Virus record (IMG/VR): IMGVR_UViG_2675903313_000009
DNA from: a virus
Taxonomy: Duplodnaviria > Heunggongvirae > Uroviricota > Caudoviricetes
Length of the DNA stretch: 64,000 nt
Strand: one strand, 5' to 3'
Shown in pieces: positions 4,080 to 51,885 of this stretch. The notes below the pieces were generated by a model. That model had not been told where the DNA came from. It saw only the letters and a program-made list of their open reading frames with translations, and did not search any database. The position numbers and the translations under genes are program-made. Positions within the stretch are counted from its first letter, which is position 1. Every line of letters begins with the position of its first letter.

Positions 4080-4829
4080 GTGAGCCACATGAGCCAAATC
4101 TTTTTTGATACCATTGACAACGACCAGTACGACTTCATGACAGAGTGGAATACCGCTGTTATGGACAAGTGGGTCGCTGAAAACATTGGTTTGTCGCGCT
4201 GCAAAGACGAGGCTGAACTCTTCGAGACGAAGTGGTTTGATTACCGCGATATGCATCCTCTCATGGCCACCTGTCTGTTTACGGAGGCGTACAAACGTCA
4301 GTACTCAAATATCATGCTGACGCACGGTCGCGAACACTTTGAAACAGCTCCGTTCACCACCGGGTTAAAACGCCTGCCTTATCAGGAGTTGTCGACTGCC
4401 AATAAAACGTCGCTATGGAAAGCACGCCAGTTTGCTGATCGCTATTGCTGTTCATACGACTACTTTATCTCCACGGTTCTTTCCGCAGCTGCACGGCGTC
4501 TGTGGGACAAGTTGCCGCGCCCACAGCATTTATGGCAGCCAGAACTGGTTGAGATATTCGAAGAGAAATTATCCAGACGCGCAACAACCCGTCTGGATGA
4601 CTCTCTGGTTAGCTTTAAGCATATGGGAGACATGCAGTTCAACCCGATTCAGGAAAGCTATTTTGAGTGGATTCTGGAGCGTTTGCGCATCATCCCCCGC
4701 AGCAAGCGCATACGCGCAATTTTCTCTGCTATCTGGCTAATGGAAATCGTTCCAGAGCGCCTTATTTCCGCCCACTTTCCAGAAGAACTGGAAGAAGCAC
4801 GGCGGTTTATTGATCCCCTATCTAATTAA
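4080..4829 (+). CDS. hypothetical protein
   Basis: 249-codon ORF on coding strand; alternative ATG at 4089; no recognisable motif. Confidence 0.5.
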   Translation: MSHMSQIFFDTIDNDQYDFMTEWNTAVMDKWVAENIGLSRCKDEAELFETKWFDYRDMHPLMATCLFTEAYKRQYSNIMLTHGREHFETAPFTTGLKRLPYQELSTANKTSLWKARQFADRYCCSYDYFISTVLSAAARRLWDKLPRPQHLWQPELVEIFEEKLSRRATTRLDDSLVSFKHMGDMQFNPIQESYFEWILERLRIIPRSKRIRAIFSAIWLMEIVPERLISAHFPEELEEARRFIDPLSN

Positions 4830-13608: not shown

Positions 13609-13683
13609 GATGGTGTAGCTCAGCGGTAGAGCAGTTGGCTGTTAACCAACTGGTCGGTGGTTCGAATCCACCCACCATCGCCA
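13609..13683 (+). tRNA. tRNA-Asn (anticodon GUU)
   Basis: cloverleaf read by eye: acceptor GATGGTG/CACCATC, anticodon loop CTGTTAA, T-loop TTCGAAT, encoded CCA. Confidence 0.85.
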
Positions 13684-13688
13684 ATTTA

Positions 13689-13775
13689 GGGGAGTTAGTC
13701 CGTAGAGGTAGCGGTGTAGACTGTAAATCTACTGTCATGGCGACTCGGGTGGTTCGACTCCATCACTCCCCACCA
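13689..13775 (+). tRNA. tRNA-Tyr (anticodon GUA), class II with long variable arm
   Basis: acceptor GGGGAGT/ACTCCCC, anticodon stem GTAGA/TCTAC with loop CTGTAAA, T-loop TTCGACT, encoded CCA; D-arm not fully resolved. Confidence 0.7.
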
Positions 13776-13779
13776 AATT

Positions 13780-13855
13780 GCCGGTTTAGCTCAGTTGGTA
13801 GAGCAGTCGCTTTGTAAGCGAATGGCCAGCGGTTCAAGTCCGTTAACCGGCACCA
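13780..13855 (+). tRNA. tRNA-Thr (anticodon UGU)
   Basis: acceptor GCCGGTT/AACCGGC, D-arm GCTC-AGTTGGTA-GAGC, anticodon loop TTTGTAA, T-loop TTCAAGT, encoded CCA. Confidence 0.8.
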
Positions 13856-13863
13856 ACACAACA

Positions 13864-13939
13864 GGTAAGAGCATTGGGCGAATCGGCGATACTGACCCAC
13901 AAGGCCGTAAATCGATAGAGTCAGACCAGTGCTCTTACC
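13864..13939 (+). other. inverted-repeat hairpin between tRNA-Thr and tRNA-Ser (14-bp stem)
   Basis: ggtaagagcattgg pairs with ccagtgctcttacc (one G-U), loop about 48 nt. Confidence 0.5.
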
Positions 13940-14045
13940 GTTGTGATGAATGCACAGGCTGATGTGCCGCAACTACAGTAGTGCGCGCTTTGCGGGGCTT
14001 GCTACAACCCTGTGTCGGAGTTCAGTACCGACCATCACAATAGCT

Positions 14046-14132
14046 GGAGAGTAGGGAGCATGGTGCTCAAGCGGTCTTGAAAACCGTTCCATTGTGCAAA
14101 CGATGATGGTTCGATTCCATTACTCTCCGCCA
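14046..14132 (+). tRNA. tRNA-Ser (anticodon UGA), class II
   Basis: acceptor GGAGAGT/ACTCTCC, anticodon stem GCGGT/ACCGT with loop CTTGAAA, long variable arm, T-loop TTCGATT, encoded CCA. Confidence 0.7.
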
Positions 14133-50296: not shown

Positions 50297-50317
50297 TTTG
50301 TTCTGGCGTCTGTAATT

Positions 50318-50383
50318 AGCCTGCTTCTGTATATATAAATAACCACATATTAATTATTAATATACGGAAGCAGGCTGTTTTGT
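50318..50383 (+). terminator. long imperfect hairpin plus T-run; copy 2 of the conserved hairpin element
   Basis: arms agcctgcttctgtatat / atatacggaagcaggct followed by gttttgt; arms nearly identical to the 3915 element. Confidence 0.5.
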
Positions 50384-50481
50384 ATCAGAGACTCCAGACC
50401 TGAACATCACTACAGAATCCACTAGAACCCCTTCCCAGACGCTTTAAAATCGATTTTATGAACCACTTTAAGGAAACCAAC

Positions 50482-50712: not shown

Positions 50713-50719
50713 TAGATAA

Positions 50720-51290
50720 GTACAAACTATTCATAAAGTGAATTGTAAGTGCTAAGATCTGATAGTTTCCAGTCGTAGACTGGAGACTCGACCTGATGGG
50801 TGGGGGTAAGCGTCACTGGCGTCAGGTTTAAAAAAGCTCACTACCAGCGTAGAACTGGTGCCGTTTAGGTGTCGGGGAAGGGGGAACCAAAGTGAGCAGA
50901 GACAAGGGTCACTTTATGATTGTCGAGTCTGGGGTGTTTCGAGAGGTTGAATCCAGTACTCCCCTTCATAAAGTGTGGGAAGATCTCGGTTCTGGGGTGC
51001 TGTCATCCATAACTTCCCAAGTCTAAGCTGGCAGTAGACTTAGACCATAACTTTTCAGGTTATGAAACGACCAGGTTGGTGAGAGATTTTTATACTCACC
51101 TCCCTGGGAGAGTATTACCTGAAAAGACAACCTCTCACTTCGTTCGAGGTGAACTTCACTCACTTCGTTCGTTCAGTTCAGGTTTATAAAAACCTGTTCT
51201 GGGAAGTAATTTGTTTATTTTAATAATTATTAACACGCACGCGTGTGCGCACGCGCGAGGAAAAATCGGCGCGGCGCTTGATTCAGGAGT
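50720..51290 (+). other. 570-bp structured noncoding region (candidate ncRNA or origin/packaging element)
   Basis: no credible ORF; G-runs, repeated tctggggtg, several local hairpins, tandem tcacttcgttcg repeat, 25-nt perfect alternating purine-pyrimidine tract at 51233-51257. Confidence 0.4.
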
Positions 51291-51294
51291 TTAT

Positions 51295-51885
51295 ATGACG
51301 ACGAAGACACCAGCCCGATCGCAAGCAAAAACTCGCAAAAAAGACAAAAACAAAAATTCTCCCCGCACCAATCCCACAACGCCTGTCGTAGAGTTCAATC
51401 CCCAGCTTAAAACCGTGAAAATCTTTAGTGATGGCTCTTGCCTTAAAAATCCGGGTGGCCCGGGCGGTTACGGTATCGTTCTCCAGTATCGTGGTGAGGA
51501 ACGCGAGTTCTCAGATGGTTTTCATAGCACCACCAATAACCGCATGGAGATGATGGGGGCACTTATCGGGCTGGAGCGTTTGAAATATCCATGCAACGTT
51601 ATTTTGCACTCTGATAGCCAGTATCTGAAAAACGGCATGACACAGTGGATGAAATGGTGGAAACGCAATGGATGGATGACTTCTGACAAAAAACCGGTAA
51701 AGAATGTTGATCTGTGGAAGCGTCTGGATGAGGCCGCAAGTCGACATAATGTTCGCTGGAAGTGGGTTAAAGGTCACGCCGGGCATCGTGAAAATGAAAT
51801 ATGTGATCGACTCGCGAAGATCGCAGCTTTTTCAGCAGCAGATATGCCTCACAAGAAAGATATTGGTTTTGTTTATAACAAATAG
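51295..51885 (+). CDS. rnhA: ribonuclease HI with basic N-terminal extension
   Basis: [38 protein letters not shown] parallel E. coli RNase HI; ORF open from 51211. Confidence 0.9.

Follow-up and report, generated by a model that had tools for sequence, protein, structure and literature searches.

Which function, if any, is carried by a long intergenic stretch devoid of any convincing open reading frame (ORF) within a densely packed block of viral genes? This question is raised by the 64,000-nucleotide (nt) window analysed here (IMG/VR virus record IMGVR_UViG_2675903313_000009, Caudoviricetes), in which a gap of 582 nt (50713-51294) extends from the stop codon of a 76/84-amino-acid (aa) ORF to the ATG of an RNase HI gene (rnhA) at 51295. 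The initial annotation of this gap had proposed a lytic origin primed from a transcript or an R-loop, a structured non-coding RNA (ncRNA) or a packaging site. The data presented below indicate that the gap is probably an independent gene for a large ncRNA belonging to an undescribed family, and that this RNA would be accessory, expressed in lysogeny and trans-acting.

A conserved, folded and non-coding core

The main signal of the locus, which the initial annotation had missed, is that its core (50787-51208) is more conserved than the flanking coding sequence. When 64 distinct homologous loci were aligned and compared segment by segment, the versions from Salmonella, Enterobacter, Cronobacter and Klebsiella showed 84-91% identity over 50787-51277. 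In the same genomes, identity is lower for the upstream ORF (73-78%) and for rnhA (72-76%), and it is 42-61% over the 74 nt separating the upstream ORF from the core. On the 3' side, the conservation of the RNA stops at 51208. In addition to these sequences (clade A), a divergent clade B, ~58% identical over the core, is represented by Cronobacter sp. JZ38, Enterobacter sp. CP102 and a number of contigs from IMG/VR and from metagenomes.

The comparison of the two clades (59 distinct sequences in the covariation set) reveals a secondary structure that has been maintained despite this divergence. RNAalifold predicted 98 pairs, 30 of which display compensatory double changes, almost none being broken. 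The hand-curated model retains 84 pairs distributed in 11 helices (99.5% paired). At least one compensatory pair was found in nine of these helices (five in P5, four in P1 and three each in P2, P4 and P9). Both sides have changed in 26 of the 84 pairs, compared with 1-5 in controls in which the 3' partners were slid by 1-3 columns, and in none of 500 shuffles were the pairing, the covariation score or the count of compensated pairs as high as those observed. The covariation analysis recommended in the initial annotation therefore revealed compensatory substitutions above controls and maintained base pairs. The minimum free energy of the + strand is -162 kcal/mol (z = -4.4). Changes of the G-U to G-C to A-U type are frequent, and the 401 G.U cells of the model would be A.C mismatches on the opposite strand, pairing being 99.5% on the + strand versus 91.4% on the - strand. 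This strand-specific G.U pattern implies that the constraint acts on a single-stranded RNA.

The absence of a coding function was confirmed. The seven ORFs of 30-46 aa found on the two strands of the gap are not conserved, each of them being broken by a frameshift, a stop or the loss of its start in 18-46 of the 59 homologues, near-identical ones included, and no protein-coding frame conserved in relatives was found anywhere across the region. The phage-plasmid Cyrano (OV696614), which is 98% identical, was nevertheless annotated with a 44-aa "hypothetical protein" at this place, CYRAN_81 (window 50892-51026, OV696614 78657-78791), presented in the Cyrano paper as an expressed moron. There is next to no likelihood that a small protein gene exists as annotated. 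The ORF begins with a GTG and is intact in 40 of the 59 sequences, but the others show 14 frameshifts (one of them in an E. coli relative that is 99.8% identical), a single internal stop and the loss of the start in four cases. Furthermore, the substitutions track base pairing rather than codon positions, and the conservation reaches ~130 nt upstream and ~180 nt downstream of CYRAN_81. The small-protein reading is thus effectively refuted, and CYRAN_81 is a chance ORF inside the RNA gene.

Promoter, transcript and expression in lysogens

The RNA has its own sigma-70 promoter on the + strand (50730-50758), which consists of a -35 box TTCATA (50730-35), a 17-nt spacer and an extended -10 box TGcTAAGAT (50750-58). 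In the alignment, both boxes vary across lineages (TTCATA, TTTAAA, TTCAAA, TTTACG or TTTACC for the -35 box; TAAGAT, TAAAAT, TAGAAT or TAACAT for the -10 box) and the sequence of the spacer has diverged, while the exact 17-nt spacing is found in all lineages of both clades. This promoter has eight matches out of 12 and was missed by a consensus promoter scan. Transcription is predicted to start at ~50764-50766, a position that coincides with the first base of a 5' hairpin, P0. This hairpin would have a stabilising or protective role, as its location at the predicted transcript start is an arrangement typical of hairpins that protect 5' ends. The RNA gene could therefore span ~445 nt of the + strand, from ~50764 to 51208, or ~515 nt if the transcript ends at a G+C-rich hairpin located further downstream (51247-51283).

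Expression of the locus can be followed in RNA sequencing (RNA-seq) data from E. coli LF82 that were re-analysed by Misson et al. (PMC9928086). This strain harbours the phage-plasmid Cyrano, with 97-98% identity at the RNA locus. In lysogens, CYRAN_81 is expressed 12-fold over the local background, the repressor reaching 10-fold (PMC9928086). In lysogeny broth (LB), the normalised counts (fragments per kilobase per million, FPKM; Table S1) of CYRAN_81 are 113/121, with a mean of ~117, whereas those of its neighbours are 6.0 for the methyltransferase, 9.5 for the upstream ORF, 8.4 for RNase H and 8.3 for the next gene (PMC9928086). Across ten samples, the log2 values of CYRAN_81 range from 6.8 to 10.35 versus 2.3 to 5.8 for its neighbours; they are maximal in bacteria that have spent 6 h inside macrophages (~11-fold induction) and parallel those of the repressor, integrase and RepA genes (PMC9928086). 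From 51026 to rnhA, the signal falls ~14-fold. With levels far above those of its neighbours and similar to those of the repressor and RepA genes, this transcript is part of the programme of the lysogenic or plasmid state, and there is no comparable read-through into rnhA. Among the proposals made initially, that of a structured ncRNA is therefore strongly supported by covariation, by the presence of a dedicated promoter and by a discrete transcript in published RNA-seq data.

Architecture of the RNA and of its 3' junction

All the structural elements described here are on the + strand. Three short hairpins that could not be aligned by MAFFT (P0, P2b and P10) were tested sequence by sequence. 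The 5'-terminal hairpin P0 (50764-50788) is represented by 21 distinct sequences forming at least seven unrelated stems, all of which fold (-3.9 to -17.8 kcal/mol). The P1 hairpin (50791-50827; strands 50791-50802/50814-50827) includes 12 pairs that are 100% paired, four of them with compensatory changes on both sides, and its loop carries the invariant motif GAUGGGUGGRGG. The P2 domain (50837-50896) is closed by a helix of five pairs (50837-41/50892-96), three of which are compensatory. It holds the G-rich strand GGGGAAGGGGGAACC and an inner hairpin, P2b (50855-62/50868-75), that folds in 14 of 14 variants. The P3 domain (50910-50975) is composed of a 10-bp helix (50910-19/50966-75; 99.7% paired) and of P3a (50927-32/50953-59; 95.8% paired), each with two compensatory pairs. 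The loop of P3a holds the invariant GAGAGGUUG (50941-50949), which is perfectly complementary to the invariant CAACCUCUC found 180 nt downstream (51128-51136). According to this complementarity, the two segments may form a pseudoknot that would compete with helix P8.

The central part of the RNA begins with P4 (50976-51019; strands 50976-82/51013-19) and its inner hairpin P4a (50995-99/51004-08), both 100% paired, with three and one compensatory pairs, respectively. The P5 hairpin (51021-51045) shows the strongest covariation in the RNA, five of its ten pairs (100% paired) being compensatory. The P6-P7 arm (51051-51126; 51051-60/51117-26, 51071-75/51103-07 and 51078-83/51095-51100) is a long irregular hairpin found in the minimum-energy fold of both clades, the clade B version being a near-perfect hairpin of ~30 bp with a different sequence. 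Two compensatory pairs were found in helix 9 (P7/P7b) and one in a competing local hairpin (helix 8; 51046-53/51057-64). The segment 51051-51060 can thus engage in two mutually exclusive pairings, either in this local hairpin or at the base of the P6-P7 arm, each with a compensatory change between clades. These alternative pairings (51046-51064 versus 51051-51126) may constitute a conformational switch. The 3' domain (51128-51208) comprises P8 (51131-34/51146-49), which is invariant, P9 (helix 11; 51150-55/51175-80), which has three compensatory pairs, P10 (51179-85/51190-96), which folds in 11 of 12 variants, and a conserved tail, UUCUGGGAAGUAA. Taken together, the near-invariance of the loops as well as of the stems points to a tertiary structure or to several bound partners. 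Three other pairings were considered and dropped: 50786-91/50922-27, because its 3' end belongs to P1 according to covariation, 51009-19/51200-10, which is not kept in clade B, and an ACCAG/CUGGU pairing in P2, which is broken in clade A variants.

The motifs reported in the initial annotation are all present in the gap. The G-runs correspond to GGGTGGGGG (50798-50806) and GGGGAAGGGGG (50874-50884), and the two copies of TCTGGGGTG lie at 50928 and 50991. The tandem duplication is an exact 13-nt direct repeat of CTCACTTCGTTCG (51134-46 and 51159-71), seen in the structure as a CACUUCGUUC motif repeated in the loops of P8 and P9; the only other repeats of the gap are two-copy repeats of 9-16 nt. 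More generally, the 5' half of the RNA is G-rich and its 3' part is C-rich and G-poor. The description of the locus as the largest noncoding gap holds within its co-directional gene block but not genome-wide, as gaps of 744-849 nt exist elsewhere according to the annotation of Cyrano, which was used for gap ranking and gene synteny.

Downstream of the RNA lies an A+T-rich spacer (51209-51232) whose sequence is variable and unalignable and whose length is 24-38 nt in relatives. It is followed on the + strand (51233-51265) by a polymorphic (CRCG)n purine/pyrimidine (Pu/Py) tract, the conserved CACGCGCGAGG (51250-60) and an A-run (51261-65). In the window, ACACGCACGCGTGTGCGCACGCGCG (51233-51257) is a perfect Pu/Py alternation of 25 nt, the longest one of the 64 kb (the next one being 14 nt). 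The Z-DNA-prone tract pointed out initially is thus real, but instead of a conserved element it represents a hypervariable simple repeat located where cassettes join. In 86-89 distinct contexts, the alternation runs over 7-29 nt and the A-run over 5-10 nt, both varying even between otherwise identical E. coli sequences; the Pu/Py tract and the A-run are slippage-prone simple repeats rather than conserved elements. Their lengths vary like those of phase-variable simple repeats, in or next to the loop of a hairpin that precedes the ribosome-binding site of rnhA. CGCGCGAGG is also kept in clade B. The hypothesis that CACGCGCGAGG could be a repeated operator was rejected, as this sequence occurs only once in the window. 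Right after the A-run, the sequences diverge completely in two relatives (loci L237 and L276) and in clade B, and the segment 51233-51265 marks the end of the conserved module and its junction with a variable downstream cassette.

The hairpin that overlaps this junction (51247-51283, + strand) is G+C-rich, carries the A-run in its loop and is followed by UUGAUU; the versions from E. coli, Salmonella and Klebsiella are all predicted to form it. In clade A, it results from the pairing of the tract with the start of the rnhA cassette and precedes UUGAUU or UUUGG. Its outer stems differ by lineage (GCGC/GCGC or GCGUGCGC/GCGCACGC) and it lacks a canonical U-tract. It might act as a weak terminator or belong to the 5' untranslated region of rnhA. 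At the corresponding side of a clade B locus (L164, ~4385-4500), a promoter close to the consensus (TTGACT-17-TAAATT) precedes a canonical terminator (GGCTGGGTTCGCCCAGCC and a T-run) by ~100 nt, and this segment might correspond to a distinct small RNA unit that clade A lacks.

Genomic context, possible role and rival explanations

The region of the window is 98-99% identical to the Escherichia phages CMS-2020a, Cyrano and PhiR41_1, ~80% identical to the Salmonella phage SSU5 and 100% identical to a 113-kb E. coli plasmid. From these matches, the window can be assigned to the SSU5-like phage-plasmids. The RNA element was detected in 687 PLSDB plasmids from Klebsiella, Escherichia, Enterobacter, Salmonella, Citrobacter, Cronobacter and Shigella. 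Of 5426 complete E. coli genomes, 232 (~4%) carry it, nearly always on plasmids of ~106-116 kb. It is present as a single copy in the window, with a median of one copy per carrying genome, and among the E. coli matches listed, the locus is left without annotation by RefSeq/PGAP. Homologues were searched for by a metagenome scan anchored on the upstream 76-aa protein, with a conserved 23-mer in IMG/VR, by BLAST with the clade B element and by tblastn in plasmids; the carriers of the RNA recovered in this way all belong to clades A and B. A genome scan using the RNase H protein as a query retrieved chromosomal rnhA loci only.

The RNA locus is located within a co-directional block of DNA metabolism genes that encode, among others and in this order, a polymerase III epsilon-like exonuclease, a Dam-type methyltransferase and the 76-aa ORF, followed by the gap, RNase HI and TciA/TerB. 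RepA is encoded ~17 kb upstream of the gap, and genes for a T4-like UvsY, a gp32-like single-stranded DNA-binding protein (SSB), RecA and SbcCD are found farther upstream. As stated initially, the downstream gene (51295-51885, + strand) encodes a true RNase HI (PF00075, E = 1e-44), which is a neighbour and not a part of the RNA element. In other carriers, its place is held by other cargo. In clade B, the RNA is followed by a promoter-like site, a canonical terminator and a gene encoding a Tad2-like Thoeris anti-defence protein (PF11195, above the gathering score). It is followed by a HEC-08 candidate defence gene with a DUF3644 region (E = 5e-146) in locus L276 and by an element of the IS3 insertion sequence family in locus L237. 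As a Tad2-like gene, HEC-08 or IS3 can thus replace it, rnhA is an exchangeable cargo and the link with RNase H is incidental. A third group of phage-plasmids (clade C, from Moellerella, Providencia and Pectobacterium) keeps the block encoding the exonuclease, the methyltransferase and the 76-aa ORF, and carries at this place a type I restriction system or a colicin gene with its immunity gene; nhmmer and a motif search found no match to the RNA in the ~7-kb stretches examined. In relatives, the cargo site was located at 4529-4840 of L164, 3719-4810 of L276, 7884-9004 of L237, 4649-6186 of L304 and 5961-7213 of L305. The 76-aa upstream ORF also occurs without the RNA and hence is not an obligate partner. 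Given the variable downstream cargo and the lack of any RNA match in clade C, the RNA heads a cargo hotspot and is itself an accessory component.

Taken as a whole, the following scenario can be proposed. While the phage-plasmid resides as a plasmid in the lysogen, the + strand would be transcribed from the dedicated sigma-70 promoter, beginning with the protective 5' hairpin. The RNA would fold into at least ten helices disposed as a row of arms, possibly joined by long-range contacts, and would end before rnhA. As it heads a hotspot of cargo devoted to defence, counter-defence, bacteriocin or nuclease functions, it would be an accessory ("moron"-type) RNA that works in trans as a folded molecule. 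From its place among genes of defence, counter-defence and competition, an involvement in lysogen conversion or in conflicts between mobile elements may be suspected. Its most likely mode of action would be that of a scaffold or decoy bound by at least one protein, to the benefit of the lysogen or of the element when it is in conflict with other mobile elements. More tentatively, and with a lower probability than that of an accessory trans-acting RNA, the element could be the founding member of a new class of large RNAs with a tertiary structure, of a size and constraint similar to those of RNase P RNA or ROOL, that would act as a stand-alone effector of lysogeny (for example an RNA-only device for defence or counter-defence, or the core of a ribonucleoprotein that captures a protein of the host or of a rival phage).

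Several points weigh against this scenario. The trans-acting and conflict-related role is based on context only. No complementarity of at least 13 nt to the RNA was found elsewhere in the 64-kb window, the longest one (12 nt) being at chance level, and a simple antisense role on the element is therefore not indicated. The published counts cover a mis-annotated ORF of 135 nt and not the whole element, and the strand-specificity of the libraries is unverified. A terminator scan and the inspection of hairpins did not reveal any canonical terminator at the 3' end of the RNA; as a speculation, its C-rich and YC-rich 3' third (Y being a pyrimidine) would suit Rho loading. Only two clades are available, so that most of the compensatory changes reflect one deep split, with a few others within clade A, and several helices (P8 and the possible pseudoknots) are invariant and outside the reach of covariation. 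Lastly, recombination between lineages could, besides selection, explain part of the high identity.

The RNA does not belong to any family recognized so far. The Rfam search recommended initially was carried out with Rfam 15 on both clades, at gathering and permissive (E <= 10) thresholds, and did not retrieve any relevant family, in particular RNAI, C4, 6S, transfer-messenger RNA (tmRNA), RNase P, group I or II introns, ROOL, GOLLD, OLE, raiA or HEARO. The best matches in the region (E = 0.06-0.07, less than half the gathering score) are eukaryotic or viral families that merely match hairpins, and only four tRNAs exceed the gathering threshold in the window. ARAGORN detected no tRNA or tmRNA in the gap. 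The locus does not resemble type III toxin-antitoxin systems (ToxI-like) either, as there is no array of ~30-40-nt repeats and the neighbours are variable, none of them matching a PADLOC toxin model. A literature search on ncRNAs of SSU5-like elements and phage-plasmids yielded no description of the RNA, and the literature on Klebsiella p2 nothing on its locus; the only trace found in publications is the mis-annotation as an expressed "hypothetical protein" moron.

Some known RNAs nevertheless share features with this element. ROOL, GOLLD, OLE, raiA and HEARO are likewise non-coding, several hundred nt long, borne by mobile elements, more conserved than neighbouring proteins and built of many covarying helices, and ROOL and GOLLD are often found in prophages. 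Unlike them, the RNA described here has no Rfam match, is confined to one phage-plasmid lineage of Enterobacteriaceae and is expressed in lysogeny. Like the anti-small RNAs (anti-sRNAs) of Shiga toxin (Stx) phages, IsrK, 6S and CsrB, it has its own promoter in a dormant phage and probably acts in trans on functions of the host or of competitors, but it is 5-8 times larger than typical prophage sRNAs and has neither the GGA-loop arrays of CsrB nor the open-promoter mimic of 6S. Large structured ncRNAs are rare in bacteria and almost none is known from E. coli and its relatives, whose genomes are more heavily annotated than any others. The present RNA is under a stronger constraint than the surrounding proteins. 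It is either missing from the RefSeq annotation or mistaken for an ORF of 44 aa, and its carriers form a family that spreads through clinical Enterobacteriaceae, often with resistance genes. Besides the ~4% of E. coli genomes mentioned above, hundreds of clinical plasmids from Klebsiella, Salmonella and Enterobacter contain it. It provides a concrete and easily testable candidate for an RNA-based function of plasmid-prophages in maintenance, immunity, defence or counter-defence.

The main rival to an independent trans-acting RNA, although unlikely, is a cis-acting leader or attenuator in which alternative folding and/or Rho-dependent termination would set the read-through into the cargo, the RNA of lysogens being the terminated leader. 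Such a device would account for the two covariation-supported and mutually exclusive pairings of 51051-51060, for the ~14-fold drop of the signal before rnhA in spite of the lack of an intrinsic terminator, and for the G+C-rich hairpin located just before the ribosome-binding site of rnhA; the 3' third, C-rich, G-poor and full of YC dinucleotides, also resembles Rho-loading sites. However, a near-invariant multi-helix RNA of ~445 nt far exceeds the needs of known leaders, the cargo differs among carriers with no evident common function to be regulated, and the clade B version has a promoter of its own (TTGACT-17-TAAATT, consensus-like) as well as a canonical terminator interposed between the RNA and the next gene. 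A DNA-level element (Z-DNA or cruciform, recombination or packaging site), the rest of the gap being unconstrained spacer, is less probable still. The Pu/Py tract is highly non-random and lies exactly where the downstream cassettes are exchanged, but it is also the least conserved and a length-polymorphic part of the locus, whereas the constraint bears on the 445-nt core with its strand-specific G.U pattern. In particular, nothing supports the packaging site proposed initially: the terminase genes (CYRAN_1/2, at 135-2023 of Cyrano) are far away, at the end of the genome opposite to the RNA.

The remaining rival, an RNA-primed origin, is improbable, even if the vicinity of RNase H makes it tempting. 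According to this model, which could be of the ColE1 RNA II, T4-like R-loop or mycobacterial non-RepA type, the transcript would form a hybrid near the GC tract and the A-run, be cut by RNase HI and prime replication from its 3' end. As in ColE1/pMB1 RNA II, there is a structured transcript of ~500 nt with its own promoter, G-rich segments (in the 5' half) and a connection with RNase H; here, ~500 nt separate the promoter from a conserved GAGG-A(n) site located downstream, and in most carriers rnhA comes next. The RNA-DNA switch of ColE1 also takes place in an A-run adjoining a G+C-rich sequence. Moreover, the element encodes T4-like recombination-replication proteins (UvsY, gp32-like SSB, RecA and SbcCD). 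A precedent is provided by the extrachromosomal prophages of mycobacteriophages, which lack repA and whose ORF-free, RNA-expressing region is necessary and sufficient for replication (PMC7157519). This region is also transcribed in lysogeny, but no sequence relationship is expected, and in the present case repA is present and the RNA has no match in related elements (clade C).

The other data argue against an origin. A RepA replicon is located ~17 kb away; clade C shares the block of replication genes but displayed no RNA match in the ~7-kb stretches examined; rnhA is a dispensable cargo; and expression of the RNA is seen during lysogeny, not just upon induction. The geometry relative to the putative switch point is not fixed (spacer of 24-38 nt, A-run of 5-10 nt), and the C-rich RNA near the 3' end disfavours a stable R-loop. 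The cumulative GC skew rises monotonically across 44-62 kb without any turn at the RNA locus. In the gap, DnaA-box matches are at background level, and neither iterons nor a GATC cluster (only three GATC sites) were found. A ColE1-type RNA I unit, which would overlap the 5' ~110 nt of the primer on the opposite strand, was not detected either, there being no Rfam RNAI match in the region and no terminator on the - strand; the sole promoter-like site of this strand (50771-50742) points away from the body of the RNA, and an antisense RNA would have A.C mismatches where P1 has G.U pairs. The lytic R-loop origin beside RNase HI put forward in the initial annotation is thus not supported. Although it is tempting to conclude that a structured gap adjoining an RNase H gene must be an R-loop origin, this locus shows that such a conclusion needs correction.

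Four additional features of the window can be mentioned. In its second half, the sole dip of the cumulative GC skew is at ~32-36 kb, at about the position of RepA and the origin according to the synteny with Cyrano. Directly after the stop codon of the methyltransferase gene (50313-50388), a long A+T-rich hairpin (GCCTGCTTC...GAAGCAGGC, then TGTTTTGT) resembles an intrinsic terminator closing the upstream operon, which a simple terminator scan had missed. The RNase HI has a lysine-rich N-terminal extension of ~37 aa (window 51295-51410) that lies outside the Pfam RNase_H match (residues 40-178). Finally, a cluster of four tRNA genes (Asn, Tyr, Thr and Ser-UGA) is found at 13609-14132; the last one reaches 47.3 bits with the Rfam selenocysteine-tRNA model (threshold 47 bits) and is identified as a tRNA-Ser by ARAGORN.

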